The notes below the pieces were generated by a model. It did not search any database. It was not told the origin of the DNA and worked only from the letters and a program-made list of their open reading frames with translations. Below, one piece after another: positions 18,350 through 55,859 of a stretch of DNA of 64,000 bases (the first letter of the stretch is position 1; each line of letters starts with the position of its first letter). A program made the position numbers and the translations under genes. The stretch covers positions 32,001 through 96,000 of the IMG/VR virus record IMGVR_UViG_3300017565_000002; one strand, given 5' to 3'. The stretch is from a virus. Taxonomy: Duplodnaviria; Caudoviricetes.

Positions 18350-18374
18350 TAAATCGATCGTAAATTAAGGTCGT

Positions 18375-18386
18375 TATAATGATGTT
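18375..18386 (-). promoter_or_regulatory. late promoter motif AACA-N6-TA
   Basis: AACATCATTATA, 26 nt upstream of the fibre gene. Confidence 0.7.
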
Positions 18387-18405
18387 TCGTTTAAAAAATA
18401 GGTAA

Positions 18406-18431
18406 AGAGTAGGTGATATATCACCTACTCT
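18406..18431. terminator. palindromic hairpin terminator
   Basis: AGAGTAGGTGA-TATA-TCACCTACTCT. Confidence 0.7.
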
Positions 18432-18439
18432 CCGTTTCA

Positions 18440-20566: not shown

Positions 20567-20592
20567 TAAGTACACCTCCATATGTGTTTACA

Positions 20593-20619
20593 AAGGAGTC
20601 GCCACTTAGACGACTCCTT
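20593..20619. terminator. hairpin terminator
   Basis: AAGGAGTCG / CGACTCCTT stem between structural genes. Confidence 0.6.
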
Positions 20620-20625
20620 ATTTCC

Positions 20626-24417: not shown

Positions 24418-24454
24418 ACTTCTCTCATACCTCCTATGACGTTCATGTCTCCAT

Positions 24455-24466
24455 TAATAGACTGTT
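24455..24466 (-). promoter_or_regulatory. late promoter motif AACA-N6-TA
   Basis: AACAGTCTATTA upstream of the 24417 start. Confidence 0.7.
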
Positions 24467-24494
24467 TTTAACACATTTATCTATACCCAATATT

Positions 24495-24809
24495 CCCCCT
24501 TAAATAGTATAAAATAATACTACTATAACTTAAATAATAAGGGGGCGCTAAGCCCCTTTTACTGGGACATAGAGGGGCGGACGGGCGGGATCTGTGAAGT
24601 GCAAGGAAGAAGAAAACTAGAAATCCCTAGAGATCTCCCCGAGAGGGGAGGAGCCCTTGACCCCCGTAGGGTAAAGAGGAAAAACAGCTCAGTGGTGAAG
24701 AAGGGTCTTGGAAGGGGTAGGACAGAGGACGAGCGAAGGCGAGACCCCCGTGTAGAGGGAGAGTACGTGTTCAAATAAATCTACCAGAAGAATGAGACAA
24801 TTCTTCTGG
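24495..24809. other. GC-rich, purine-skewed non-coding island with G-quadruplex motif and hairpins
   Basis: 24561-24770 is about 57% GC and 69% purine on + (hand count). Canonical G3+N1-7 x4 motif at 24564-24589. Hairpins at 24542-24556, 24635-24650 and 24784-24809. Confidence 0.6.
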
Positions 24810-24878
24810 ACTAAACTTTATTCTTTTAACCATTAGATAAGCAGAATGGATAGAACTTATCGAAATGAGGGATGAAAT

Positions 24879-25733
24879 ATGGGTAAGCTATTACAGGATT
24901 ATATAAAGCACAGAGAGATAGAAAGAGAATCTCAAAAGAGAAGAGAGAACTTCTTCTTCTTAGGAGGATTCATAAGTATCTTCTCGATTATTATTATTCT
25001 ATATGTGGCAATCTATTACGTAGAGCAGCATGATCCAACAAAAGATCTATACTTCTATCCATCGACAAAAACAGAAGCAAAGTCAGAAAAGGGAGAAGTC
25101 TATCAGATTGAAAATATATTCCCAGCTTATGATAACTACAACTTCTTCTTAGAGAAAAAAGCTGTGAACTATAAAACCATGTATGGATTAATTGGGAGAA
25201 AGTTTGATATTCATTCTTTCAGGGAATCCTATGAGTTTAGTATTATCAAAAATCCCGATAACGATATTGCAAATGGGTATGGTATTAAGAGATACTACAT
25301 CTACTCATTAATCAACGATAAAGATCCGGTAGCTATCTTATATGTAGAGAAAAGTGAAGGCATGATCATAGGTGTAACAAGTCCTTATTTGATTAATGCA
25401 GAGTTTAAGGATATGACACTCAATGGTTCTAACTTTACAGAGGTAACGAGATTGAATGATTTTATGATAGGAGAAGACAAGAAGCATTATACCTTTACCC
25501 ATTATGGGGGAGACTTATACTTAGCAACGACAGAAGGTAACGAGTATGGATATAAGAGTAATGATCCTTTAATCTATACAGCAACCATCTACAGTAAGAA
25601 GTCGATTAATTCAATCTTACAACTGATTGATTTCTATAAGGATAATGAAAACTACGTCACAGCATACTTTTCAATCTTCTTAAACGATAAGTATCAAGTT
25701 ATCTATCAAACACTCGTCAAAGAGAAAGGGTGA
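24879..25733 (+). CDS. membrane-anchored hypothetical protein
   Basis: Single N-terminal TM (FFFLGGFISIFSIIIILYVAIYY); GAGGG RBS; variant promoter AACC-N6-TA at 24828-24839. Confidence 0.75.
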   Translation: MGKLLQDYIKHREIERESQKRRENFFFLGGFISIFSIIIILYVAIYYVEQHDPTKDLYFYPSTKTEAKSEKGEVYQIENIFPAYDNYNFFLEKKAVNYKTMYGLIGRKFDIHSFRESYEFSIIKNPDNDIANGYGIKRYYIYSLINDKDPVAILYVEKSEGMIIGVTSPYLINAEFKDMTLNGSNFTEVTRLNDFMIGEDKKHYTFTHYGGDLYLATTEGNEYGYKSNDPLIYTATIYSKKSINSILQLIDFYKDNENYVTAYFSIFLNDKYQVIYQTLVKEKG

Positions 25734-25752
25734 GAGGAGAAATCCTCTCACC
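25729..25752. terminator. bidirectional terminator (GAAA loop)
   Basis: GGTGAGAGGA-GAAA-TCCTCTCACC between convergent genes. Confidence 0.75.
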
Positions 25753-25761
25753 TTCTTTTAT

Positions 25762-26709
25762 TTAATCTACGATATCCGATACATTCTTCTCAATCTTCTT
25801 ATAGATGGTATTCAGGTTAACCCCAATCTCTGTGGTAATCTTATTGACATTGACTGTACCAGAGAGACAAGCGGTAGATATCAGCATATAGAAGAAGTAG
25901 GGGATATATTCTGGTGCAAACATGGTGGTTGATCCATAGGATAAAGACCAACGATCTACAAAGTTTTGGAAGGTTACTTTCTTCATCTCTGGAAATACAC
26001 GAACCAAGCTTTCGATAAAAGTTTTCAAATCTTCGTAAGAAGAATTCTCTCCATACATTTTAAACTTGGCATCTAACGCTGCAATGTTTTCTTTCGAGTT
26101 ATACTTAAGCAAGTTTCCATAAGGATTCGTGAATACCTTATCTGGACCATAGATATTGTAGAAGTAGAAGTTCGTGGTGAGGTATTGAAGTTTTTCCCTT
26201 TTAAGCTGATCCACATAAGCAAGATTGCTTATAATGTTTGTAAACAATCGTGCATAGATCATATACGTATCTCTTGCATAGGAGAGGATACTATCATCGA
26301 TGATCAAACCAAATGCAGCGGACAATAACATCGCATACAACGTATTCGGTGCAATATTGATCCGACCATCTTTATGCATGGTACAGAAATTTGTGATATT
26401 GACCACAATACATACCCGACCATTCTCTTGCTTACGGAAAAAAGGAATGGCATTTGTCAAACGCATCTGATCATTGTAGACCATTTTAATCTTTCCACTT
26501 TTGACGAGCTTATCAATGGCATACTTAGCAAAGTACGGAGAAGTACGAGAGGTGATATCTGACATTACATCTTCAATCATCTCATACTCAATTTCGATTG
26601 TACCATTCTTCCGTAGACTATAAGCCATAATAGTCTGGGTTAAACTTTGATTCGTAGCTTGTTCAGCAAACGTATAGATTGAAGACGTGATCAGGGACTT
26701 AAGTGCCAT
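25762..26709 (-). CDS. hypothetical late (probable virion) protein
   Basis: 315-aa ORF, GGAGG RBS, AACA-N6-TG at 26762-26773. Confidence 0.7.
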   Translation of the reverse strand: MALKSLITSSIYTFAEQATNQSLTQTIMAYSLRKNGTIEIEYEMIEDVMSDITSRTSPYFAKYAIDKLVKSGKIKMVYNDQMRLTNAIPFFRKQENGRVCIVVNITNFCTMHKDGRINIAPNTLYAMLLSAAFGLIIDDSILSYARDTYMIYARLFTNIISNLAYVDQLKREKLQYLTTNFYFYNIYGPDKVFTNPYGNLLKYNSKENIAALDAKFKMYGENSSYEDLKTFIESLVRVFPEMKKVTFQNFVDRWSLSYGSTTMFAPEYIPYFFYMLISTACLSGTVNVNKITTEIGVNLNTIYKKIEKNVSDIVD

Positions 26710-26761
26710 TAGGAATACCTCCTATATTGTCATGTAATTAGAGAATCTCCGATAAATCTTT

Positions 26762-26773
26762 CAATTACTTGTT
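26762..26773 (-). promoter_or_regulatory. late promoter motif AACA-N6-TG
   Basis: AACAAGTAATTG. Confidence 0.65.
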
Positions 26774-26817
26774 TTATAATAAAAAGAGGGAGAGTCTTGA
26801 TGACTCTCCTTTGATAT

Positions 26818-27816
26818 TTAATCTTTCTTATCATTACTTGCTTTCGGGCTACCACCCTTTTTAGTCAGTTCCTTAATCAATGCTGTGGTATAAGACATTG
26901 CTCGCCAGAAGATATTGATCGCAGTGGTGATAAACTGTAATAATGCATCCATAGTACCAGTCATGATTGCAAGACCACCACGTCGTTTATGCTCATCCAA
27001 GTCTCCCTTTATTCTCGTATTCAGGAAGGCACGTTCAAGTTGTCCAAGCTCGGAGATAATCTTGGTTTTCAACGGATTCAAATTCTTAAACATCTTCGCA
27101 CAGGTATCCAATGCTTTAGCGAGACCTGATAGATTTAGCGAGGATATACTATGACTGGTTTTATTCCCAAAGAATGCAGTGGATGCACCTTGAGGGGTGA
27201 AACCATCTTTAGTTTTTTCCAAGTGGAACAATTCCCCGATCCACTTATTCAATAATTCTTGTTTTGTATCTTCCCGTATACCGTTTATTTTTACACCACG
27301 TCTGGATGCATCAACCATTGCTTTTTCCATCTCTGGTGATGTGCCATTCTTGGCAAATCCTTCGAGTGCACCAAACGATTTAACGGCAATATCCAATACC
27401 TTATTGGGTTCGATATCAGAGATCTTCATTAACCCCTCTGGGTAACTGATGGTTCCAGAGAGATTCTTTATATCGAGATTATCTATCTTCCTTTTTAAAT
27501 CATCTACATGTGCTTCGAAAGAACCCTTAAACTTATCCATCATCCAGTTTAAGAATTTTGCAATCTTCTCTTTGATGTAAGAGATGAAAATCTTGAATCG
27601 GTTTCCAAACTCCTCTTGTGCTTCGACGAATAACTGATCCGAAGATTCAAGTAGTTTATCGAACCCGGAGAGAGATTCAAATAATTCATAGGATTCAATA
27701 ATCCAAGATGAATTACGGAATTCGTTTTCATCAGTGATTGTGAAGTCTAGTGTATCACCAGATGGATCAACGATGTCACCCTCACGAATCATTCTAAGTC
27801 TTTCGTGGATATTCAT
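26818..27816 (-). CDS. probable internal head protein, leader family member A
   Basis: MNIHERLRMIREG leader, acidic propeptide with LxE-S/A sites, amphipathic helix FISYIKEKIAKFLNW; own late promoter and terminator. Confidence 0.7.
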   Translation of the reverse strand: MNIHERLRMIREGDIVDPSGDTLDFTITDENEFRNSSWIIESYELFESLSGFDKLLESSDQLFVEAQEEFGNRFKIFISYIKEKIAKFLNWMMDKFKGSFEAHVDDLKRKIDNLDIKNLSGTISYPEGLMKISDIEPNKVLDIAVKSFGALEGFAKNGTSPEMEKAMVDASRRGVKINGIREDTKQELLNKWIGELFHLEKTKDGFTPQGASTAFFGNKTSHSISSLNLSGLAKALDTCAKMFKNLNPLKTKIISELGQLERAFLNTRIKGDLDEHKRRGGLAIMTGTMDALLQFITTAINIFWRAMSYTTALIKELTKKGGSPKASNDKKD

Positions 27817-27844
27817 ATGTGGTTTTCCTCCTTGAAGCTGTAAT

Positions 27845-27856
27845 TAATTAGCTGTT
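27845..27856 (-). promoter_or_regulatory. late promoter motif AACA-N6-TA
   Basis: AACAGCTAATTA. Confidence 0.75.
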
Positions 27857-27867
27857 TAAAAAGGAAA

Positions 27868-27894
27868 GTAGAAGGGAGTCAGTCTCCCTTCTAC
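27868..27894 (-). terminator. hairpin terminator
   Basis: GTAGAAGGGAG / CTCCCTTCTAC perfect 11-bp stem. Confidence 0.7.
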
Positions 27895-27902
27895 GTCTCA
27901 AG

Positions 27903-28880
27903 CTACTCTTTATTCTTAGAACTCTTCACAAGCGTATTCGCAATACGAGCGAAATGATCCAGTGCCTTCCAGAAGATATTCAGTATGAAGGTGATGCACG
28001 TCAGCATCGCATCCATAGCACCCATGATCGCAGAGAGAATTCTTCTCCTTTCGTTGTCTTTCAATTTAGGACTGAAGGTAGTTCTTTCAAGTTGTCCTAA
28101 TTTAGAGACGAGTGTAGATTTTACGCTTGAGATACCATTGAATACACCAACGGTGGAATCTAGACCTTTTGTGAAGCGAGCCGTGTTTATCTCAGAAAGT
28201 TCTACTTCCTCAGTATCCCCGAAAATTTGTGAATCGATGACACTTTGCGAAATTTCGCCTTTTTCTGTTACGAGTCCTTTCATGTCGAATAACTCACGCA
28301 TGATTTGTTCTATGGTATTGTGTTTAACGGCCTTCCGTATGTCCGAGCTGGACGCGTTTTGGTCATTGGCGATATCCCCTACCAACCCGTCCATTATATC
28401 TTTGGAGTCACCGGTGCTCATATAGCGTTGAATCATTTGATGTAATTCACCAAATGCTCCAGCGATATCCGAAGCCTTGATTTCCTCAATTGCTTCTAAA
28501 TTCTCCGGTACTGCAATTGTTCCCTTTAAGTCACTGGTGTTTATCGACGATAGCTGTTTCTTTATCGCTTGAACCTTGGATTCATAGGTTCCTTTGAATT
28601 TCGCCATCATCCAGTTTAAGAATTTTGCAATCTTCTCTTTGATGTAAGAGATGAAGACTTTGAAGTGACTACCGGATTCTTCTCTCGTTTCTAAGAAGAG
28701 ATCAGACGATTCCAGCAGTGCATCAAACCCGGAGAGAGATTCAAATAGTTCATAGGATTCAACAATCCAAGATGAATTTTGGAACTCATTCTCATCTGTG
28801 ATTGTAAAGTCCAGTGTTTTACCGGAAGGTTCAATGATATCCCCTTCTCGGATTAGTCTAAGTCTTTCATGAATATTCAT
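27903..28880 (-). CDS. probable internal head protein, leader family member B (paralog of A)
   Basis: First ~90 aa nearly identical to member A; remainder diverged. Confidence 0.7.
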   Translation of the reverse strand: MNIHERLRLIREGDIIEPSGKTLDFTITDENEFQNSSWIVESYELFESLSGFDALLESSDLFLETREESGSHFKVFISYIKEKIAKFLNWMMAKFKGTYESKVQAIKKQLSSINTSDLKGTIAVPENLEAIEEIKASDIAGAFGELHQMIQRYMSTGDSKDIMDGLVGDIANDQNASSSDIRKAVKHNTIEQIMRELFDMKGLVTEKGEISQSVIDSQIFGDTEEVELSEINTARFTKGLDSTVGVFNGISSVKSTLVSKLGQLERTTFSPKLKDNERRRILSAIMGAMDAMLTCITFILNIFWKALDHFARIANTLVKSSKNKE

Positions 28881-28906
28881 GTATATTTCCTCCTTAGTCT
28901 ATCGTT

Positions 28907-28918
28907 TAATTACTTGTT
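28907..28918 (-). promoter_or_regulatory. late promoter motif AACA-N6-TA
   Basis: AACAAGTAATTA. Confidence 0.75.
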
Positions 28919-28957
28919 TAAAAAGTGAAGGAAGGGGAAGAAATCCCCTCTCTTTAG

Positions 28958-29875
28958 TTATTTTGACTTTTCAATCATGATATGCAATAGGTTATACATA
29001 ATGATCGCGGACTTCAGCATAACACGAGCTAGGGTATTGTATACGATAAGAGATGCGTTGTATAGTTTTGGTGCTGCATCCATTGCCAGCTCAATATACA
29101 CAGGGTTCTTACTATTTTTGATGAGTTTATCTAGGTTTGTAATATCTGCTCTGAGTGTATATTGCCACTTGCTACTACTTTGCTCGAACTCTTTTACAAT
29201 TGTTTGGAACTGTCTGATAAGTGTGCGTTTGGAAATATCATTTACCTTAACTGATTCTACTGGTCCAAAGATGAACTTTGACATGGCATCCACATCAGAT
29301 GTATCAATCTTGTATCCCCTGAAGACTACAAACCTAAGGTAGTTTTCAGCGATATGCTCTGCTGATGGTGCGACACCATGATTATTCACATATTCGGTAA
29401 ACGCACCACGAGGGAGTTCATTCGCTACGCCTGTTTCAAGAATACTATTCATTGCATCACGCATGACTTCTTGTAGCATAGGTAAGATAACCGTAATATC
29501 AATCTGTGGTTCAGTTAGGAACTTAGGGATACTCTGGACCATGGCTGGATCGGAGAACTCCCTTATCTTAGATGCATTCCGATTGACGTGATCCAGTCTC
29601 CGTCCGAAGTCAGCCTCTACTTTCTGTGTGAATAAACGGAAGAAGCTGATGATTTTGTCTATGATAAAACGGAGAAGGTCTTTGAATCGTTCATATAGAT
29701 GATAACGATTCTGTTTCATATCTGCATATATTGCACCCAAACTAGATTCTTGCATAAGTGTCTGTGCGTTAGCTATTTGATAGTAGGCTTGCTCGAATGT
29801 GAGTGTCTTGTACGAATCATTGGTTTCTACAAAGACACCCTCTGTGATCATCTTAATGCGCTCTGCAATATTCAT
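28958..29875 (-). CDS. probable internal head protein, leader family member C
   Basis: MNIAERIKMITEG leader; helix RFKDLLRFIIDKIISFF parallels that of A and B. Confidence 0.65.
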   Translation of the reverse strand: MNIAERIKMITEGVFVETNDSYKTLTFEQAYYQIANAQTLMQESSLGAIYADMKQNRYHLYERFKDLLRFIIDKIISFFRLFTQKVEADFGRRLDHVNRNASKIREFSDPAMVQSIPKFLTEPQIDITVILPMLQEVMRDAMNSILETGVANELPRGAFTEYVNNHGVAPSAEHIAENYLRFVVFRGYKIDTSDVDAMSKFIFGPVESVKVNDISKRTLIRQFQTIVKEFEQSSSKWQYTLRADITNLDKLIKNSKNPVYIELAMDAAPKLYNASLIVYNTLARVMLKSAIIMYNLLHIMIEKSK

Positions 29876-29946
29876 GATTTACCTCCTGTATCTGGTGTAT
29901 TTTAATTTGAAAGTGAGAATCATGATGATTTCCATATTTTTCATTC

Positions 29947-29972
29947 TATTTAGCTGTTTGAACATAGAGGTA
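29947..29972. promoter_or_regulatory. back-to-back divergent late promoters
   Basis: Minus AACAGCTAAATA (29947-29958) and plus AACATAGAGGTA (29961-29972). Confidence 0.7.
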
Positions 29973-30004
29973 AGCAGTTAACTTAACATCTAGGAGGCAC
30001 AACC

Positions 30005-30778
30005 ATGAGTATTGAAGTAACTGTAAGTGTAACGTTGCCAATAGACGATGCCAAGGCCCTGCTCTCATTTCTGGCAGGTATGAATGCACCTGTGATCATT
30101 GATCCGCCTATACCGGAGGGTGATGATCCGGTGGATGATATCCCAGATGTACCACCACCTCAAATTATGTATGAGACAAAGGTTATCTATGGTGTAAACT
30201 TTAGGAGTATTCCTAATACATCATCGGAAAGCTATGTCTATCGCATGATACCTAAGGGTGAGGATATACATGTCATTGAGCAAATAGACGATGGTTGGCT
30301 TAAGATTATTGTTCAGGATGGTACGGTAGGTTATATTTCCGCCCTTCCCAAATATACAACCTATTCGCAATCCTCCGATCAAGATAAAACAGCGGACAAG
30401 CTTATTAGCTATGGAGAATCTTTCATGGGTGCTCCCTATAAATTTGGTGCAAAGATGGACGAGCTTGTAGATGGTGTTAGGGTATTCGACTGCTCGTCAT
30501 TTGTAAAGACAGTATTCCGGGATGTATTAGGTATATCACTACCTAGAGTATCGAAAGACCAAGCAACGGTTGGTACTGATGTGAATAAAGAAAATCTCCA
30601 AAAAGGAGATCTAGTATTTTTCACAAGTCGGAATCTGCCTGTTGGACATGTTGCAATATACGCCGGGAATGATAGACTTCTCCATACCTATTCGATTGCA
30701 TCCGGTGGTGTCAGATATACCGGATTTAAAGGAACTCAGTGGGAAGATCGGTTTACAAGTGCAAGACGTCATATTTAA
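30005..30778 (+). CDS. SH3b + NlpC/P60 cell-wall endopeptidase
   Basis: FDCSSF catalytic Cys, GDLVFF, GHVAIY; SH3b-like segment (VNFRSIP...GWLKI....GYI). Confidence 0.92.
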   Translation: MSIEVTVSVTLPIDDAKALLSFLAGMNAPVIIDPPIPEGDDPVDDIPDVPPPQIMYETKVIYGVNFRSIPNTSSESYVYRMIPKGEDIHVIEQIDDGWLKIIVQDGTVGYISALPKYTTYSQSSDQDKTADKLISYGESFMGAPYKFGAKMDELVDGVRVFDCSSFVKTVFRDVLGISLPRVSKDQATVGTDVNKENLQKGDLVFFTSRNLPVGHVAIYAGNDRLLHTYSIASGGVRYTGFKGTQWEDRFTSARRHI

Positions 30779-30788
30779 GAAAAATATA

Positions 30789-30812
30789 ACCCTCTGCAAT
30801 TATGCAGAGGGT
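30789..30812. terminator. bidirectional terminator
   Basis: ACCCTCTGCA-ATTA-TGCAGAGGGT between convergent genes. Confidence 0.8.
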
Positions 30813-30817
30813 CTTTT

Positions 30818-31420
30818 TCAATTCGAGTATTTTTCAACAAGTCTGTCGAACTCGCCAATATAGAACTCAAGTTTAGCGATATTCTTTTTCAGTTTAGCTA
30901 CCTTTCTCTTATCGGAAAAATTTGAAGATGCTGAAAGTTCGGATACCCGTTTTTCCAGCTCCTTCTTGAATTTAAGGGCCTCGGATTTATATTCCTTTGC
31001 GGTTTTGGCATCCATACCACCAATAGCACGGGCCCTCGAAAATAATCGTGTGATCATTGCATAATTCCCGAACCACATATAACTACCTCTGGTCGTAGTC
31101 AACTGATTGACCAGTTTGAGGTCCTTCAATATTTTACTAGGAGGCAATGTGCTCATGTATGCTTTATATCCAGTCTTAACTTTTTGCCAAGCTGAGGCGT
31201 CCTTGGACTTTTCGGCTTCCGACGATTGTTTGATCAAATCGACCAAGGAAGCACCGCCAGCCGCCTCAAACATATATCCATCTACATTTTCGGTCTCAGA
31301 TAAAAAGAATTCCAACGCTGTCTCTTTTAGAAATTCTTCTTCATCTTCATCAAACGCCACGTCCAAATCTTCCAAGGCTTCTCCTTCTCGGATTAGTCGT
31401 ATGCGATCTTTAATATCCAT
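30818..31420 (-). CDS. probable internal head protein, leader family member D
   Basis: MDIKDRIRLIREG leader, very acidic propeptide ending MFEA, basic mature part. Confidence 0.65.
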   Translation of the reverse strand: MDIKDRIRLIREGEALEDLDVAFDEDEEEFLKETALEFFLSETENVDGYMFEAAGGASLVDLIKQSSEAEKSKDASAWQKVKTGYKAYMSTLPPSKILKDLKLVNQLTTTRGSYMWFGNYAMITRLFSRARAIGGMDAKTAKEYKSEALKFKKELEKRVSELSASSNFSDKRKVAKLKKNIAKLEFYIGEFDRLVEKYSN

Positions 31421-31444
31421 GCTCTAACCTCCATTGATTTCGAT

Positions 31445-31456
31445 TATGATAATGTT
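31445..31456 (-). promoter_or_regulatory. late promoter motif AACA-N6-TA
   Basis: AACATTATCATA. Confidence 0.7.
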
Positions 31457-31471
31457 ATAAACGACCACTGC

Positions 31472-32212
31472 TTGGACATATTACCATACTTTGGCTCGGG
31501 AGATGAAGAAATGATACCTATATTTTCAGAACCATCCAATCATACTACGTATCGAAATACATCAGGTGTAGTTGTACCTTCAGTTACAAGCATTATTCAT
31601 ATGATAAATAAACCCGAATTGGTACACTGGGCTAACTCTTTAGGGTTTAAGAGGAAGAGTGTTAGTAAAGAGTTAGACGTATCTGCTTATATTGGTGATA
31701 TTACACACAAGTTGGTGGAAATCTATACTACAACGGGTAAATACTCATATGATATTATAGATCGCAAAGGTCCAGTCGAGAGATTAGGAATTAAAAATGC
31801 ATTCCTATCCTTTCTCCAGATGTATAAGACCGAGCACCCTCATATCGAAATTCATGATACAGAAGTTCAATTGGCCGGAGAGAAATTTGGTGGGACAACT
31901 GACCTTTTGGCTAAATATCATGGTAAGTTTACTATAGGAGATTACAAGACTAGCAAAGGATTCTATCCTACGATGTTTTTACAAATTGCAGGATACGATC
32001 TTCTACTCCGAGAGCTTGGATTATTTAAAGCCGAGCAATACGTCGTGTTCTTGTTAGATAAACGAGATGGTAGACCTGCCAAGATAAAGATATGTGACGA
32101 TAAAGATCAGATGCAGCTATATCGGAAGTGTTTTAAGACTTTGGTCGATTTCTATTACGATTGGTATATGATTAATCAACGCTACTGGGGTAAAGACCTC
32201 CTTGTTAAATAG
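31472..32212 (+). CDS. PD-(D/E)XK (RecB/lambda-exo-like) exonuclease; true start may be 31511
   Basis: PSVTSI, GTTD, DYKT and QxxxY motifs. Confidence 0.85.
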   Translation: MDILPYFGSGDEEMIPIFSEPSNHTTYRNTSGVVVPSVTSIIHMINKPELVHWANSLGFKRKSVSKELDVSAYIGDITHKLVEIYTTTGKYSYDIIDRKGPVERLGIKNAFLSFLQMYKTEHPHIEIHDTEVQLAGEKFGGTTDLLAKYHGKFTIGDYKTSKGFYPTMFLQIAGYDLLLRELGLFKAEQYVVFLLDKRDGRPAKIKICDDKDQMQLYRKCFKTLVDFYYDWYMINQRYWGKDLLVK

Positions 32213-32248
32213 ATTAAACAAGTGATAAATTACTAGGGAGGAATCGTT

Positions 32249-32692
32249 GTGAGTGTTCTGGAGCGAATCGTACTTATTCAAGAAGGTATTTATCATGAAG
32301 AACCATATCTGCAAGAAGCATTTTTCAAGACCAAAGAGGAACGAACCCATAAAAAGCAGATTTATGATGAAGTGATTAAAATGCGTAGGAAGCTACTGGC
32401 AGAAATCGAAACGACGATTAAAACCAAAGACAATGTCCGGGCTATAGATAATTTGATAACTTCTTATGTTAATAAGTATAAGGACGATAAGATTGCATTG
32501 GTCGTTATTAGAAAGGAACTGATCGGTTCACTTTTTGAAAAAGCGTGGGAAATTCAATGGCATCCTAGTAGTTACCATGGCGATGCATTACAGAAAAAGA
32601 ATTATAAATTCGATCCAGACGTGATTGATCAGTTGCATGTCCTCTACAGGGACAAGAGGAAGCAGCTTAAAGATCTGATCAAAAAATTGTAA
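32249..32692 (+). CDS. probable internal head protein, leader family member E
   Basis: GTG start, GGGAGG RBS; MSVLERIVLIQEG leader then LQEA; one-mismatch late motif AACAAGTGATAA at 32217-32228. Confidence 0.6.
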   Translation: MSVLERIVLIQEGIYHEEPYLQEAFFKTKEERTHKKQIYDEVIKMRRKLLAEIETTIKTKDNVRAIDNLITSYVNKYKDDKIALVVIRKELIGSLFEKAWEIQWHPSSYHGDALQKKNYKFDPDVIDQLHVLYRDKRKQLKDLIKKL

Positions 32693-32703
32693 TCAAAAAA
32701 GAG

Positions 32704-32729
32704 AGCATAGAGGCTAAGTCCTCTATGCT
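32704..32729 (+). terminator. intrinsic terminator
   Basis: AGCATAGAGG / CCTCTATGCT followed by a T run. Confidence 0.8.
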
Positions 32730-32794
32730 TTTTATATTTCCACCATAACGACCAATTATATATGATCATGGTGTAGATTATAATCTAATGGGAG

Positions 32795-33508
32795 ATGATG
32801 AGTTTGAGGTTTCTCGGACGTTTTAGGAGATCAAAGAAAGACCATTTACATGAAATTGATGCTGAGGATCTTAGATTATCAATTATAATCATCGCCAGTC
32901 TTCACAGCAGCACACTCAAGCGTATCAATTCATTTGGTTGTCATCTTCCTATTGTCGAAACTATCCTGGCATTTTTAGATACCAATCCCTATTTCAACGA
33001 TGATGATATCAAGAAATATATGATTAGGGTCCTCAATTATGAACGATATTTATTTTCAAGAGGTGTAATAAACATTCTTAACACTGACTACATAGAACGC
33101 CTGCATACACGACTTAAAGTATGGAAGAAAAATCAGGAGAAAGGGAAAGACACCGGTCCTTTTTATTTAAACCGCGACGTGGAGCAGCTAGAAATGTTCC
33201 TCCAATCAATGGATAACACTATGGAGTTTATTGTACATTACGACACTTTATTTACCACCGTCACTCAGAAAGCCATGGATGAAGTTACGAAATACTCCGA
33301 AGCCATGGAGAGGATGTTGGGCCAACATCCTGAAGAGGCAGAAATCATAAATTCTTGTAAAGTCATAGTTACTGTATCGGCATTATACTTAAACGAACCT
33401 TATGGTCAGATATTTAATGACATAGACTCTGAAATTCTCGTCAAGGCACGATTGGCTATAAGGAATACGATGAATGCTATTCAGGAGATTTTATTGCAGA
33501 AAGAGTAG
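32795..33508 (+). CDS. hypothetical protein
   Basis: 237-aa ORF, GGGAG RBS, variant early motif ATATATGAT at 32758-32766. Confidence 0.7.
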   Translation: MMSLRFLGRFRRSKKDHLHEIDAEDLRLSIIIIASLHSSTLKRINSFGCHLPIVETILAFLDTNPYFNDDDIKKYMIRVLNYERYLFSRGVINILNTDYIERLHTRLKVWKKNQEKGKDTGPFYLNRDVEQLEMFLQSMDNTMEFIVHYDTLFTTVTQKAMDEVTKYSEAMERMLGQHPEEAEIINSCKVIVTVSALYLNEPYGQIFNDIDSEILVKARLAIRNTMNAIQEILLQKE

Positions 33509-33554
33509 AAACCCTACTCTTTCTTTTTTGACGATGATGAAGGGGTGTATTGAT

Positions 33555-33980
33555 ATGGCTATAATGATTATAGAAGAAAAAGATCTATTTACAGTAGATG
33601 AATCTTACCATTTGGTGCACTGCATAAGTGCAGATTATGCATTAGGTAGGGGAATCGCCAAGGAGTTCGATAAACGATTCAATCTTAGGTTTAAGCTCCA
33701 AAGAGTCGGAAGTGGTATCTATCCCGACTGCATACTAATCGGTAGGGTATTTAATTTGGTTACCAAGAAAAGTTACGCCTCGAAACCTACATATAAAACT
33801 TTGGTTGAGGCATTAATTCAAATGAGGCAGTGGGTAGAAGAAAGATTTATATTGAAGCTTGCAATGCCTAAGATCGGTTGTGGGCTAGATAGATTAGAAT
33901 GGGGAAAAGTATTGAAAGCCATTGAGCTTGTATTTGATAGGGTAGATATTGAAATCAGGATATGCATATGGGGTGATTAG
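33555..33980 (+). CDS. TARG1/OARD1-like macrodomain ADP-ribosylhydrolase
   Basis: Start revised to MAIMII. Motifs HCISAD..LG.GIA, LVTKK...KPTY and LAMPKIGCGLDRLEW closely match TARG1. Confidence 0.9.
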   Translation: MAIMIIEEKDLFTVDESYHLVHCISADYALGRGIAKEFDKRFNLRFKLQRVGSGIYPDCILIGRVFNLVTKKSYASKPTYKTLVEALIQMRQWVEERFILKLAMPKIGCGLDRLEWGKVLKAIELVFDRVDIEIRICIWGD

Positions 33981-34296
33981 ATTGATAAAAATTGAAGAGT
34001 TGGATAGGCTGATAGAGGTCGGTGCAAGTATTAGGGATATACTCTTAATCGTAGCAGATACAATCTCTAACCAGCCATCAGAATTAGGAAGAGATCAGTT
34101 ATTGACTGAGCATGGCTTACTGAGTGTTATGTATTGCATCTCGGAGCTACCAACTACAACATGTGCAAGAATCCTATGTTATAATGAAAATACTGTCTCT
34201 ATGCTTCCTACGTCTATAAGCAATCTTTTACCAGTTGACCAGACGAGGAATATAGCTAGTATTCTCCAGCAGTGTAGGCAGATTAAAACTGAATAG
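33949..34296 (+). CDS. hypothetical protein (start uncertain)
   Basis: ORF fills the gap between the macrodomain and the nuclease. Confidence 0.5.
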   Translation: MKSGYAYGVIRLIKIEELDRLIEVGASIRDILLIVADTISNQPSELGRDQLLTEHGLLSVMYCISELPTTTCARILCYNENTVSMLPTSISNLLPVDQTRNIASILQQCRQIKTE

Positions 34297-34368
34297 ATAA
34301 TTTATATTATCTCGAAGATAAAATTTTTCGTTTCGGTTAACTACCCATTAAAGGGTTGTTTTGAAAGG

Positions 34369-35568
34369 GTGATACCTATGTATCGTGATAGACTGAGGAT
34401 ATCGGCACATATAGCCGATATCCATATTGGTGTTCATACTATTACCGCGGAAGAGATTAAATATCAGTTATACGAGAGATTTATTAAACCACTAAGTGAA
34501 CTAGCTATACTAGACCTTATCACTGTCAACGGGGATGTGTCCCATTTATCATTGTCGTTTAACTCAAAACTTGCTGAAGTTTATATCTGGTTCTTCGATA
34601 GTATCGTGTCTATCGCAAAGAAGAAGAACGCCGCAATTATCGTCGTTCAGGGTACATTATCCCATGAATACGATCAGCTTGACAATGTCAAAGTGTATCA
34701 GTCAAGTGTTGAAATGTACTTCGCATCAGAACCTATGGTTGTAGAAACCAAGGGGATGCGAATCTATTGTCTTCCAGATATTCATATCAAAAATAAGGAA
34801 GACGAATCTAAACTTTATAGCTTTCCCGATGGTCACTTTGATATGGTATTGGGCCATGGGAGTATAACGGAAACACAGTTTATTAAACAAGAATCCGAAC
34901 ACGCGATATCAAAGAATATTGTCTACGAGAGTAAGCAACTCGTAAGAATCTGTAAAGGACCAATTCTGTTCGGGCATATACATAGTCCGATGAAGTTTCT
35001 GGGGCGGATCTTCTACATCAATTCCTTTACGCGGTATATCCACGGGGAAGAAGCCGACAAAGGATGGATGTTAACTGCTTATATCCCCGAGACTGCACAG
35101 TTTATTGCAGAGCGGGTGATCAACGACCTCGCATTTAACTTCAATATCTTCACAGTTAGCCACCAGTTGTTTGATAAATTGGATGCAGATGAACTTGTTA
35201 AGAAGATTGACAAATTCGTCAAAGAATATAAAGTAGATCGACTTTGTCTGGAGCTTAACTACATGGCAACAGACGCAAATATCGCCAAGATTCAAATCTT
35301 AAGGAATTACTATAGTAGAGATAAGCATGTCAACAAGCTGAAGATTAAAGCGTTAAGTAAGAAAGAAGCCCAATTGATTGAGCAAAATGAACGTCAAATC
35401 GAAGAGAATAAGAAAAGTTACTTGACAGATAAATCGCTTACTTTTGAAGAAAAGCTTCAACGATTTATTGAGGAGGAATACAACGTAAAGGTTCCAATAT
35501 CGAAATTACACACCGTATTTACCAGTGACGATCTACTCATACGCGAAGGAGTGTCAAGCGTACGATGA
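34369..35568 (+). CDS. sbcD: SbcD/Mre11-like metallophosphoesterase nuclease
   Basis: ADIHIG, NGD, GTLSHE, LGH and GHIH motifs. Confidence 0.85.
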   Translation: MIPMYRDRLRISAHIADIHIGVHTITAEEIKYQLYERFIKPLSELAILDLITVNGDVSHLSLSFNSKLAEVYIWFFDSIVSIAKKKNAAIIVVQGTLSHEYDQLDNVKVYQSSVEMYFASEPMVVETKGMRIYCLPDIHIKNKEDESKLYSFPDGHFDMVLGHGSITETQFIKQESEHAISKNIVYESKQLVRICKGPILFGHIHSPMKFLGRIFYINSFTRYIHGEEADKGWMLTAYIPETAQFIAERVINDLAFNFNIFTVSHQLFDKLDADELVKKIDKFVKEYKVDRLCLELNYMATDANIAKIQILRNYYSRDKHVNKLKIKALSKKEAQLIEQNERQIEENKKSYLTDKSLTFEEKLQRFIEEEYNVKVPISKLHTVFTSDDLLIREGVSSVR

Positions 35569-37451
35569 TACAAGGCGTATTAGACGAACCCAAATCGAAC
35601 TACGATACTTCGGTGATGAATGGTACCGCAGGGAAAATCCAAGGCAACTCGGGTATTCGATTTAAGAATATCCCACTAAAGTTTGATATTGAGACACTAG
35701 ATCTCCTATTGGCATTCGCGTTTGACGATACCAATGTCCAAATCACCAGAGCGGCTCTGATCAACCTCAGAACGTTGGTGAATATGTGTAATACAAATCT
35801 ATACCGGACAAATCAAGGGTTGAAGACAAGATTAGAATTCCTTAAACTCATCCTTGAGGCTAGACTTGACACAGGTTTAGCAAATCGTAAGATTATCTTG
35901 AATTACGCAATGGAACGTATTGATCAGAAAGAGTTAGTTCGAGAAGAGATCCTACCGGAGATCAATCGGACAAAACTTAACGGACAAGCTGTACAGCATC
36001 TGAATTTGTTTATTGCCGATCGGTTAATGAACGGATATATCTTAGCGTATCAAGGAGAAATCTTCAAGGCGTATGATGACTTGGAGTCCGGGAACTATTC
36101 TACCTTACGAGACTTTGTACAGCGATTTAAGCACATTATCACAGATCTTATTTATGACATTCGGAATAGTGAGAATTTCCAAGAAAATCTGATGACGATT
36201 GACTTATCATCTGGATTTGAAAATGTCATCAAGCAACTGGTTCAAAAACTGAAAGACCCTAAGAATAAACTAAAGACAGGTTCCCAAGCGGTTAATATGT
36301 TACTTAATGGTGGGTTCGAAGGCGGACGTTCCTACCTTTTCTATGGCTTACCCGGCATTGGTAAGTCAATTCTCTTATTGAATATTTGTATTTGGATTAT
36401 GAATCATAATGAAATCATACCTAATGATCCATCCAAACGTCCGGCTGTATTATATATCACGCAAGAGAACTCTCTGGCGGAAACAATCGAACGGATATTT
36501 AATATGCTGGTCACTGGGGATGACATTCGTAATTATACACCTGAGGAAGTCGCTAACCTGTTAAGAACTAAGGGTGGATTGAGTCTAAAGACGAAATACG
36601 ATATCGATCTTATCGTCCAATACTATGATGACAAAGAGATTTCCACATTGGATTTCTACTCTATCATTGATGATATTGAAGATACCGGAAGAGAAGTTAT
36701 TGCGCTGGTACATGACTATATTGAACGTATTTGGTCATCTATGCGGCTACCGGAACTTCGTCTTGAATTGGCTGCAATCACGAATGATTATTCGACCTTG
36801 GCGAAGCGGAAATCTATACCTGTCATTGGTGCAGGACAGATTAATCGAAAAGGTTCAGATGCTATCGATATGCAGATGGAATCCAACCGTAAAGACTTGG
36901 TTCGATTTATGGGCAAAGGGACTTTGTCTGAATCATGGGCGGCACTGAAGAACCTCGATGGTGCATTTACTATCCACCGAGAAGAGGATGAAGACGGAAA
37001 CGAGTTCATCACCATCAATAAGATTAAATTCCGGGGCAAGAAAGCAAAGAAGAAAAAGAATATGTTTGATTCCTATGTAGCTCACCCATTAGACCCCGAC
37101 AATGGGGCGAAACTCATGGATGATCTTCATTTGGACAAGCCACTATCAAGAGTTACATTATACGAGAACGAAGAAGCCGATATCAAGAAGAAGACTCGAT
37201 CATTGCGAGATCGTAAACCACTTAAGCCGAAGGAAGAATCTATCGAAGAGGTGGAAGAAGATCAGCAGATGAACTTCAAAGTCGTTGAAGAGGCTATTCG
37301 AATGCGTCAACGGATAGAAGAAAAGAATAATCGTATTCCAGATCAGCGGGCAGAGAAGAAGTTCGAAGAAGTATTCTCTTCATATAATCAGACTGGTCTA
37401 TACGTAAGGAATCCGAACGGGTATATTAGATTGACGAGAAAGGTAAGATAA
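35565..37451 (+). CDS. dnaB: replicative DnaB-like helicase
   Basis: Walker A GLPGIGKS, ITQE, HDY, AGQINR, KIKFRG. Confidence 0.88.
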   Translation: MIQGVLDEPKSNYDTSVMNGTAGKIQGNSGIRFKNIPLKFDIETLDLLLAFAFDDTNVQITRAALINLRTLVNMCNTNLYRTNQGLKTRLEFLKLILEARLDTGLANRKIILNYAMERIDQKELVREEILPEINRTKLNGQAVQHLNLFIADRLMNGYILAYQGEIFKAYDDLESGNYSTLRDFVQRFKHIITDLIYDIRNSENFQENLMTIDLSSGFENVIKQLVQKLKDPKNKLKTGSQAVNMLLNGGFEGGRSYLFYGLPGIGKSILLLNICIWIMNHNEIIPNDPSKRPAVLYITQENSLAETIERIFNMLVTGDDIRNYTPEEVANLLRTKGGLSLKTKYDIDLIVQYYDDKEISTLDFYSIIDDIEDTGREVIALVHDYIERIWSSMRLPELRLELAAITNDYSTLAKRKSIPVIGAGQINRKGSDAIDMQMESNRKDLVRFMGKGTLSESWAALKNLDGAFTIHREEDEDGNEFITINKIKFRGKKAKKKKNMFDSYVAHPLDPDNGAKLMDDLHLDKPLSRVTLYENEEADIKKKTRSLRDRKPLKPKEESIEEVEEDQQMNFKVVEEAIRMRQRIEEKNNRIPDQRAEKKFEEVFSSYNQTGLYVRNPNGYIRLTRKVR

Positions 37452-39256: not shown

Positions 39257-40453
39257 ATGGAATGGACTAGTGGACAAAAAGAATGTATACATCTTGCTAA
39301 TCGATGGCTTAAGAAACAGGATAAGCAAGTTTTCCAGTATTCGGGCCCAGCTGGAACCGGGAAGACAACTATCATGCCTGAGATCTTATCGAAGAGTAAG
39401 TTGGATGTAGATACAGAGGTGTTATGCATGGCCTTTACGGGGCGTGCGGCATCTAACCTTAGCTTAAAAGGTCTTCCTGCATCCTCTATGCATTCTGCAC
39501 TTATGGATTGTGTCACTGTTCCTAAGAAAGATGAGAACGGTAGAGAGATTTATGCCAACGGAAGAAAGGTAACAACATGGCAATTTGTCAAAAAGGAATT
39601 TCTCCCTCGATCGATAAAACTATTGGTTATCGATGAGGGTTTATTCGTTGGAACTGAAATGGGTCAAATAGCTGAGTCGTTCGGTCTCCCCATATGTGTG
39701 ATGGGGGACACCGAACAGCTTGGCCCCTTGTATGGGAAACCCTATTTTTTAAACTATGATAATATCGATTATACCTTGGATGAGATTACCCGACAGGCAA
39801 AGGGTTCGGGTATTATTGAACTGGCGACACGAATCAGGCTGGGTCAAGAACTCCCAAGGCGGAAATACAGATTTAAGGATGATGCATTTATCATCCCGAA
39901 GAAAGAGATTACAGATACCGTGTTACTAAACTCGGATATTATCTTGTGTGGGAAGAACCGCACAAGGAATTATTTCAATAAGCGAATCAGGGAAGATATC
40001 TTAGGTATCGACTCCAAATTGCCCGTCAAAGGAGATAAACTCATTTGTCGTCATAACTACTGGGGATATAACCTTGGTGGCATATCCCTGACGAATGGGA
40101 TAATTGGGCATGTTATTAATACACCGGCTAGAAGTAGCATTGATCTAAAATCCAACACAATAAAGATCGATTTTCGTCCAGACTATATCGACTATGACTA
40201 TTATGAAAATCTTCCAGTCGATATCGGCTTCTTCCAAGCAGATTGTGGTCCTGATAAGAAATATGATCCATTCAGTAAAGGGATGAAATTTGAGCTAGGT
40301 CACGCGATTACTGTACACGTTTCTCAAGGTTCTCAGTTTGATACCGCCACCTATTGGGATGAGCCGAACCCTATGATGAGTTCAGATTTGTTGAGACGTA
40401 TACGGTATACAGCCGCGACTCGGGCTAGTCAGTTACTAGTATATGCGGTATAA
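39257..40453 (+). CDS. SF1B 5'-3' helicase (Dda/RecD2-like)
   Basis: GPAGTGKTT, FTGRAA, IDE, GDTEQL, ITRQ, TVHVSQGSQF and YTAATRA motifs. Confidence 0.92.
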   Translation: MEWTSGQKECIHLANRWLKKQDKQVFQYSGPAGTGKTTIMPEILSKSKLDVDTEVLCMAFTGRAASNLSLKGLPASSMHSALMDCVTVPKKDENGREIYANGRKVTTWQFVKKEFLPRSIKLLVIDEGLFVGTEMGQIAESFGLPICVMGDTEQLGPLYGKPYFLNYDNIDYTLDEITRQAKGSGIIELATRIRLGQELPRRKYRFKDDAFIIPKKEITDTVLLNSDIILCGKNRTRNYFNKRIREDILGIDSKLPVKGDKLICRHNYWGYNLGGISLTNGIIGHVINTPARSSIDLKSNTIKIDFRPDYIDYDYYENLPVDIGFFQADCGPDKKYDPFSKGMKFELGHAITVHVSQGSQFDTATYWDEPNPMMSSDLLRRIRYTAATRASQLLVYAV

Positions 40454-40472
40454 TATTTTTTTAAACTAGTCT

Positions 40473-40484
40473 AACAGATGAATA
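40473..40484 (+). promoter_or_regulatory. late promoter motif AACA-N6-TA preceding a non-coding unit
   Basis: AACAGATGAATA; the predicted +1 (40484) is the first base of the first stem. Confidence 0.6.
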
Positions 40485-40642
40485 TCCGATTGGGCCGCGC
40501 GGATTGCGGGGCTAGTTTCGGATACAGCTTAGGGTATTATACCTCGGTCGTTGAGAAGATTGGCCGATCGAGGTATTTACCCGACCCCAAACCCCAATAT
40601 CTCCCCATACGCCCGCTCTCAGCGTATGGGGAAACTACTTTT
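40484..40642 (+). ncRNA. candidate novel structured ncRNA (~155 nt)
   Basis: About 56% GC (hand count). Three stem-loops (40484-40523, 40532-40582, 40602-40632) and a C-rich linker; no credible ORF. Confidence 0.6.
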
Positions 40643-40717
40643 AAATTAATTCTAATTATACATCAAACAAATTTATGATTAATACCCATCCTAGAAGCGT
40701 CACTTTATTTTTCAGAC

Positions 40718-40726
40718 ATATATTAT
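40718..40726 (+). promoter_or_regulatory. early promoter motif ATATATTAT
   Basis: Exact copy upstream of the 40815 gene. Confidence 0.7.
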
Positions 40727-40814
40727 TGACGTGTACTAGGTAGTATATTTAAGTACCGCCTAACGACTTAGCCAGGTCTAAGTTGGACAACCCATTTTAA
40801 GGAGGAAGCAATAC

Positions 40815-41282
40815 ATGTCTAACAAACTTAAGCATCAACTGAAGCAATTGAGAAAGCAGCAAGAGAAGTATCAAGAAGCTGTGGCGTTACAACAAGCCAC
40901 ATGCCCGCATATCAGCAAGAAGGGGAACAGCTGGCTTGTGCCTTTTACCGACGTCGATAAAGTCGAAAAGGGCAGATGCAAAAAATGCGGTGCCGTTATC
41001 TATATCGATCAACACCTGCTTGGTGGAGACAGTCTTAAAATGTCTACGAACGTGGTCAAATCAGTCTTGGCAGAAATTCGCGCGGCAAACCGCGAGGGTA
41101 AAATCGAATTGAATGATTCTGAAATGGATCTTATCACTCGATTCGACGCCCAAATTTTGAGCGAACTTCCAAAGACGATTGAAAGCTTGACGCAGGCATC
41201 TAAGAAGAAAAAGAAAGATAAAGGCAAGAAGAAAGATAAAAAGAAAAAGGCATACAGAGAGTACACACGGAAAAAGTGGTAG
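40815..41282 (+). CDS. early protein with Zn-ribbon (CPH...CKKC) and Lys-rich tail
   Basis: AAGGAGG RBS; Cys/His pattern; KKKKKDKGKKKDKKKK tail. Confidence 0.75.
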   Translation: MSNKLKHQLKQLRKQQEKYQEAVALQQATCPHISKKGNSWLVPFTDVDKVEKGRCKKCGAVIYIDQHLLGGDSLKMSTNVVKSVLAEIRAANREGKIELNDSEMDLITRFDAQILSELPKTIESLTQASKKKKKDKGKKKDKKKKAYREYTRKKW

Positions 41283-55782: not shown

Positions 55783-55791
55783 ATATATTAT
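55783..55791 (+). promoter_or_regulatory. early promoter motif ATATATTAT
   Basis: Exact copy upstream of the RNAP beta-C gene; followed by hairpin 55800-55823. Confidence 0.7.
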
Positions 55792-55859
55792 ATTTGAGAG
55801 AGATGGGATAAGAATCCCATCTCCTCTATCCGACTTCTATTTGAGGAGGAAACTGCAAG

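Follow-up and report, generated by a model that had tools for sequence, protein, structure and literature searches.

Does the structured DNA that follows a helicase gene in an uncultured giant phage encode an RNA of its own, or is it the end of the helicase message? The window analysed here, a stretch of 64,000 nt, corresponds to bases 32001-96000 of a virus record (IMGVR_UViG_3300017565_000002; 215,803 bp with direct terminal repeats) that originated from soil metagenomes. According to the original prediction, positions 40473-40642 of the window carry a late-promoter-driven structured RNA of ~155 nt, located between a helicase gene and an early gene. Our analysis suggests that a discrete late RNA probably exists at this locus. 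As to its nature, the reading that we favour, and hold tentatively, is that 40484 to ~40642 (plus strand) is a stand-alone gene for a late small non-coding RNA of ~150-160 nt, which would act by masking ribosome-binding sites.

The argument starts from the promoter code of the phage. Bacillus phage AR9 encodes two multisubunit RNA polymerases (RNAPs); its early promoters follow the consensus AAATATATATTAT-N6-G+1 and its late promoters the consensus AACA-N6-TA/G, the last base of which is the transcription start site, and AR9 genes that are expressed continuously have an early and a late promoter both upstream (PMC5312081). Both motifs recur in the phage studied here. The early motif ATATATTAT has 26 genomic copies, 22 of them intergenic and most of them 8-160 nt upstream of a co-oriented gene; these copies are nearly always followed by N6-G and match the AR9 early consensus, that of the virion RNAP. 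The late motif AACA-N6-TA is enriched 6-fold between genes (1.99/kb in intergenic vs 0.33/kb in coding DNA); of its 28 intergenic copies, 22 have a co-oriented gene starting within the next 120 nt, the usual distance to the start codon being 25-35 nt. Moreover, beta-like and beta'-like pieces of RNAP are encoded in the genome. The helicase also fits an AR9-type system: uracil-DNA jumbo phages of Staphylococcus, Listeria and Bacillus are among its nearest cultured relatives (~31-33% identity). Within window positions 17000-36000, sigma-70-like promoters were not enriched (47 found vs 63.6 +/- 8.3 in shuffles) and hairpin terminators were enriched 2.5-fold in the late gene block (28 found vs 11.2 expected); such few sigma-70-like matches and many terminators are consistent with independence from the host RNAP. 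The motif matches indicate that the phage uses an AR9-type promoter code, and thus "late promoter" is well founded as a class. Its putative member at the element, AACAGATGAATA (40473-40484, plus strand), matches AACA-N6-TA/G, with a purine, A40484, as the predicted +1 of the non-virion RNAP. For scoring of the extended context of such sites, a position weight matrix (PWM) was built from 32 intergenic promoter-positioned late sites, with leave-one-out scores for the positives.

Downstream of the predicted start, both a direct sequence check and the minimum free energy (MFE) fold bore out the three hairpins described in the original prediction: the plus strand folds into exactly three hairpins with unpaired stretches between them, at -69.5 kcal/mol. 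Hairpin 1 (40484-40523), present in both the MFE and the centroid fold, pairs ATCCGA (40484-40489) with TCGGAT (40518-40523) around an inner GC helix, so that the predicted +1 of the late motif and the first base of the first stem coincide, as had been claimed. Hairpin 2 (40532-40582, plus strand) has a long stem with interruptions, the 12-bp core of which, ATACCTCGGTCG/CGATCGAGGTAT, includes one G-U pair and is 92% complementary; this hairpin is private to the phage of the window, with no counterpart in relatives. Stem 3, the predicted terminator hairpin (40602-40632, plus strand), is a perfect 11-bp helix of TCCCCATACGC (40602-40612) and GCGTATGGGGA (40622-40632) with a 9-nt loop, and it is followed by a short U-run (TTTT, 40639-40642, plus strand) that marks the probable 3' end region of the predicted RNA. 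Between hairpin 2 and stem 3 lies a C-rich unpaired tract (40583-40601, plus strand), which the original prediction had not highlighted and which emerged as the conserved functional candidate. It is G-free after its first base, and the G-free run, ACCCCAAACCCCAAUAUCUCCCCAUAC (52% C), extends to 40609, where it enters the 5' arm of the terminator stem; its linker part has an unpaired probability of ~0.9-1.0. The template (minus) strand carries a canonical G-quadruplex motif, GGGG-N7-GGGG-N3-GGGG-N2-GGG, as the complement of the C-rich tract (40580-40606); this motif is not conserved, the relatives carrying at most three short-looped runs.

The fold is far more stable than expected from composition: dinucleotide shuffles of the element averaged -48.4 +/- 4.3 kcal/mol (z = -4.88), and 0 of 200 were as good. 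A fold of the same quality is obtained for the reverse strand (z = -5.07); the strand call therefore rests on how the genes are oriented, on the promoter motif and on where the T-run lies. The guanine-cytosine (GC) content of 40475-40624 is 0.547, vs ~0.41 for the genome. The description of the element as non-coding and structured, with no tRNA or tmRNA signature, also stands. Searches with the covariance models of Rfam 15 returned zero hits over the whole window at the gathering score and, over 40300-40900 at E<=10, only chance-level matches of no more than 20 bits, and a tRNA/tmRNA scan found none at the element. The sole open reading frame (ORF) in the element (40478-40678, 66 aa) is preceded by no Shine-Dalgarno sequence and has an ATG that comes before the predicted +1. 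It matched no family in Pfam or PHROG and had no counterpart in relatives (best tblastn E value 0.65, six-sequence database), where the chance ORFs at the same place are 0-36 codons long, in other frames and dissimilar. The missing ribosome site, missing family and missing conservation make this ORF not credible as a gene.

Is the element, then, a feature of this one phage? It is single-copy in the phage genome, and it found no match in a DNA similarity search of a phage collection and no exact 19-mer in a scan of viral contigs; a single-protein locus search for related loci also returned none. Comparison of 16 distinct helicase loci, whose helicases share about 55-64% identity and whose contigs reach 257 kb (jumbo-phage size), gave a different kind of evidence. 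The collection of homologues that the original prediction had proposed as a check yielded an element of the same layout in six related lineages. The seven carriers (the window, L015, L018, L002, L024 (=L079), L016 (=L017/L019) and L080) have an extra 90-160 nt between the helicase stop codon (40453 in the window), the anchor that precedes the element in all of them, and the hairpin. The nine non-carriers are L003/4, L005/6, L007/L021, L008, L009, L055, L056, L057 and L081; in eight of these a plain hairpin terminator lies within ~50 nt of the helicase stop and is followed by an early promoter. In L081, a SET-domain methyltransferase gene (L081:2704-3090) comes directly after the helicase. Among the seven carriers it is the layout, not the sequence, that is conserved.

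Four parts make up this layout. First, a perfect late motif stands at the 5' edge of the element in five of the seven carriers (the window, L015, L018, L002 and L024), 0-36 nt past the helicase stop and in L018 overlapping the stop codon, while the motifs of L016 and L080 have one mismatch each; the same interval of the non-carriers holds a perfect motif in 0 of 9 cases, against a shuffle expectation of 0.02-0.2 per interval. Second, all five perfect-motif loci have a first helix whose first base falls at -1/+1 of the predicted start, with or without upstream sequence in the fold. Third, all seven versions have a C-rich tract that is free of G and, by prediction, largely unpaired; it contains CCUC or CUCC in six of them. 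Examples are CAUCCUCCCU (L002), AACCCUCCUUUU (L024), CCCUCCUCU (L018), CCUUCCUCUU (L016), UUCCUCUUCUU (L080) and, in the window, ACCCCAAACCCCAAUAUCUCCCC. Fourth, a hairpin and U-tract occupy the same relative place, with canonical U-tails in L015, L018, L016 and L080. On the other hand, length (92-162 nt) and 5' structure vary among the relatives, and GC-richness is not conserved, with L016, L024 and L080 at 22-27% GC across the interval from stop codon to early promoter. The co-occurrence of promoter and insert, together with a first helix in register with +1, is hard to explain unless transcription starts there.

The helicase tree places six element-free loci in one clade (support 100/100) and the seven carriers plus three non-carriers in an unresolved bush, a topology that allows one origin of the element and a few losses. 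No displaced copy was found upstream of the homologues of the next gene (see below) in element-free relatives. In L016, the helicase and the C-rich element are separated by an inserted 46-aa ORF with a hydrophobic stretch (L016:4237-4377).

From these parts the following mechanism is proposed. The phage non-virion RNAP, directed by AACAGATGAATA, would start at A40484, and the hairpin formed from the first nucleotide would shield the 5' end of the RNA; 5'-terminal stems stabilise RNAs in Gram-positive bacteria against 5'-end-dependent decay. The transcript would stop at the 11-bp hairpin, probably an effective stop, that would also terminate the helicase operon. The working part would be the unpaired G-free C-rich tract between the 5' structured domain and the terminator, which is the only conserved unpaired element, and CCUC/CUCC is the core of the anti-Shine-Dalgarno sequence. 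This tract would pair with the G-rich Shine-Dalgarno and start regions of host mRNAs (those of the phage being less likely targets) and lower their translation. In a more specific and more doubtful version, the C-rich RNA may be a free-floating anti-Shine-Dalgarno mimic that masks the G-rich sites of host messages or leftover early messages late in infection, evolving fast with only its layout kept.

What would the tract pair with? A duplex scan of both genome strands with the C-rich tract found no outstanding ribosome-site match. Targets were then ranked in the complete carrier genomes G000 and G001 (the latter that of the L002 phage), all translation-initiation regions of each being compared with its own tract, and for 123 reciprocal-best orthologue pairs the two ranks were combined. 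A non-coding element rich in G and in purines is present at 24540-24775 of the window and at ~201,650-201,940 (minus strand) of G000; BLAST did not find it in G001. The C-rich RNA was predicted to pair with this G-rich element and its copies no more strongly than with shuffles of matched composition (z from -0.5 to +1.4). A composition scan did pick up a related start, AGAGGGGCGG..GG.CGGGAU, in G001 at ~113,300-113,580 (minus strand), preceded there by the late motif AACAAATCATTA. Other C-rich intergenic tracts, considered as further copies of the element, proved to be reverse complements of ribosome sites or 5' untranslated region (5'UTR) hairpins.

Several observations weigh against a stand-alone small RNA that masks ribosome sites: i) The 40473 promoter has a perfect core and mediocre flanks, its PWM score of 10.4 falling at the 22nd percentile of the positives, whose median is 13.5, and equally high scores are reached by 22% of the motif copies in coding regions; the late-promoter claim of the original prediction holds for the AR9-type core and its genomic usage, while the extended context falls below the median of the phage's late promoters; ii) The window tract is without a full CCUCC, and its CUCCCC is partly inside the terminator stem; iii) The U-run is short (4 U), begins 6 nt past the stem and is not listed by a simple terminator scan; iv) The homologues are unalignable (39% mean column identity and 2 invariant columns among six homologues), which leaves no meaningful pair counts for the covariation check that the original prediction had proposed; v) About half of the clade does not have the element, and the region after the AR9 helicase g016 holds no equivalent; vi) The target ranking found no shared top phage target in G000 and G001, the best rank product (0.0007) being equal to the chance median, and predicted pairing energy did not differ between early-promoter and late-promoter genes; vii) The sequencing runs listed with the element stretch are four soil DNA runs from two studies, with no RNA run among them; their contigs have identical sequence with zero variants and are thus uninformative.

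The best surviving alternative, though an unlikely one, is that the element is the 3' untranslated region (3'UTR) and terminator of the helicase operon, with the AACA motif inactive and the C-rich tract pairing back, within the long mRNA, to ribosome sites of that operon, stabilising the message or lying idle. In all relatives the element does have the helicase stop on one side and the operon-ending hairpin on the other, and the weak extended context of the 40473 promoter fits this view. Furthermore, the 3'UTR of Staphylococcus aureus icaR has an anti-Shine-Dalgarno motif, UCCCCUG, that pairs back to the ribosome site of the same mRNA, and CCCCUG-like motifs in L015, L002 and L080 resemble it. 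However, the ribosome sites of the helicase operon (GAGG, AAGGG) match the tract unremarkably, a helix placed exactly at the predicted +1 would be needless in a 3'UTR, and the perfect late motif at the 5' edge, found in five of seven elements and in none of nine element-free intervals, is not what an inactive motif would lead one to expect.

The same conserved composition can be read in terms of protein rather than RNA partners. A discrete late RNA might serve as a decoy or sponge, its C-rich single strand or its long hairpin titrating an RNA-binding protein (for example Rho, an RNase, a defence sensor or a KH-domain poly(C) binder), a role that we consider quite unlikely. Conservation of a C-rich, G-free and unpaired composition, not of a sequence, would suit recognition of a sequence class by a protein, and the search for a conserved RNA target came up empty; but no candidate binding protein was identified, and conservation of composition alone is equally expected for seeds directed at Shine-Dalgarno sequences, themselves a loose G-rich class.

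Could the RNA instead belong to the gene that follows? The position assigned by the original prediction, between helicase and early gene, was verified, with the Dda-like helicase on the 5' side and a gene with an early promoter on the 3' side. Beyond the terminator hairpin come a second predicted late promoter, AACAAATTTATG (40666-40677, plus strand; PWM score 16.8, 66th percentile), an early promoter, ATATATTAT-N6-G (40718-40733, plus strand), that matches the AR9 early consensus with G40733 as +1, and, behind an AAGGAGG ribosome site, a gene for a 155-aa protein (40815-41282, plus strand) with no Pfam or PHROG family. A motif like the second late promoter is found at the same place in L080 and L002, and the late-then-early promoter pair before the 155-aa gene, shared by these two relatives, is the AR9 arrangement for continuously expressed genes. 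With late and early promoters of its own 3' of the hairpin, the 155-aa gene therefore does not need the 40473 promoter, which appears to be dedicated to the RNA. It is nonetheless conceivable, if improbable, that the 40484 transcript is a late 5' leader of the 155-aa gene, with the hairpin as a conditional stop (attenuator). The early and late promoters upstream of continuously expressed AR9 genes offer a precedent, and the weak U-run in the phage of the window makes read-through conceivable. Four points speak against it: the stronger late promoter between hairpin and gene, as in L080 and L002; the canonical hairpin and U-tract terminators of the relatives; folds that show no alternative antiterminator pairing; and a gene after the element in L018 that differs from the 155-aa gene.

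An imperfect 10-nt direct repeat, TTTTAAA(C/T)TA, brackets the element (40459-40468 and 40639-40648) and could be a target-site duplication. Together with the absence of the element from about half of the clade and a second hairpin private to the phage of the window, this repeat is what might favour the view that an insertion of GC-rich DNA, mobile or from a host, left behind a non-functional remnant that folds by chance. By our own estimate, however, an imperfect repeat of 10 nt is at about chance level in AT-rich DNA; the element is single-copy; and the promoter, the +1 helix, the C-tract and the terminator persist through complete sequence turnover. The AT-rich versions L016, L024 and L080 keep the layout, and thus a GC-rich insertion is not the shared property. 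We give the remnant a low probability.

Finally, a primer-RNA replication origin or a phi29-pRNA-like packaging RNA, both offered in the original prediction, is very improbable: the element does lie inside a replication gene block (DnaB-like, Dda-like and GyrB-like genes) and is close to pRNA in size, but stable R-loop primers are G-rich RNAs and this one would be C-rich, of the wrong polarity, there is no skew inflection and no iterons at the element, no Rfam match to pRNA (RF00044) was obtained, length and 5' structure vary among relatives, and absence from half of the clade is unexpected for an essential function.

The genes on either side are described here as context. The upstream gene (39257-40453, plus strand) encodes a Dda/RecD-like superfamily 1 (SF1) helicase with Pfam domains AAA_30, AAA_19 and UvrD_C_2, assigned to PHROG 325 (Dda-like; E = 3.9e-72). 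The downstream 155-aa protein has an invariant CPH...C..CG cysteine pattern (CPH...CxxC) that is zinc-ribbon-like, and a very Lys-rich C-terminal tail with an aromatic last residue; it could bind nucleic acid. It is found throughout the clade (13 database homologues), for example at L015:4552-5019, L016:4614-5087, L002:4570-5067 and L024:3910-4380. Mini-ORFs with a perfect AAGGAGG directly follow the first early promoter in L015 (~4325-4380) and L002 (~4340-4410); they read MNISE-stop and MQM-stop, respectively, and between them and the 155-aa gene there is a second early promoter. The mini-ORFs may be start-stop or leader-peptide devices. Elsewhere in the window (55783-55850), a 10-bp hairpin in the 5'UTR of the RNAP beta-like gene, GAGAUGGGAU/AUCCCAUCUC, comes after the early promoter of that gene and immediately ahead of the ribosome site.

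The host may plausibly be Firmicutes-like. The hints are the strong AAGGAGG ribosome sites, a sigma-4 (Xpf-like) gene inside the window, and a SpoVS-family gene in the relative L055 (L055:5917-6197), itself a hint of an endospore-forming host.

How does the element compare with known systems? AR9 offers a close regulatory framework, with the same late core motif and purine +1, a genome-wide pair of early and late motifs, and multisubunit RNAP genes of the phage itself; the helicases of the two phages are ~35% identical, and the genome of the window phage has 41% GC. Late units of AR9 have so far been mapped for protein genes, for internal transcripts and for antisense transcripts (PMC5312081), whereas the one described here would drive a small RNA. 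In the giant phage 201phi2-1, ONT-cappable-seq detected 11 candidate small RNAs (sRNAs), three of them intergenic and eight arising from 5'UTR termination, and some giant-phage candidates (phiKZ-like) are conserved by position only, none having a known function (PMC11512511). Like the element, these are short non-coding RNAs of a jumbo phage with its own RNAPs, conserved in position and not in sequence. They differ in that 201phi2-1 is a phiKZ-like Pseudomonas phage whose sRNAs were detected as RNA, whereas the element is a prediction in an AR9-like lineage; unlike them, moreover, it has a predicted promoter of its own and shares the terminator of the upstream operon. Such an arrangement is typical of type I 3'UTR-derived sRNAs (DapZ, MicL), which have their own promoter near the end of a gene and share a terminator with its mRNA. 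The element likewise combines a predicted promoter at the 3' end of the upstream gene with a shared terminator, while promoter type and polymerase differ.

In its presumed mode of action, the element resembles the C-rich (UCCC/CCCC) trans-acting sRNAs of Staphylococcus and Bacillus, such as RsaE/RoxS and other Rsa RNAs, which pair with ribosome-binding sites (PMC2790875). Common to both are a short RNA, an unpaired C-rich motif beside a terminator hairpin and a proposed pairing with Shine-Dalgarno sequences. On the other hand, there is no sequence or Rfam relationship to RsaE/RoxS; the motifs of RsaE lie in defined loops and are conserved in sequence, whereas the element conserves composition only, is phage-encoded and is probably transcribed by a phage RNAP. 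The phi29 pRNA (RF00044) is alike in length, in being phage-encoded and in having several hairpins, but the element has no covariance-model match to it and no conserved three-way junction or loop-loop pairing, has replication genes rather than packaging genes as neighbours, and varies in length among relatives. On present evidence from sequence comparison, the element is best filed as an uncharacterised phage-encoded small RNA with a C-rich seed, particular in its AR9-type late promoter and its layout-only conservation.

To our knowledge, the cataloguing of regulatory RNAs in giant phages has only just begun, and we know of none tied to an AR9-type non-virion RNAP. Should the element be only a 3'UTR, the finding would be an ordinary one. 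If, however, it is a small RNA gene of the kind favoured here, it would be a compact example, open to testing, of how a jumbo phage exerts post-transcriptional control; moreover, phage small RNAs may then need to be found by layout and synteny, not by sequence or covariation.

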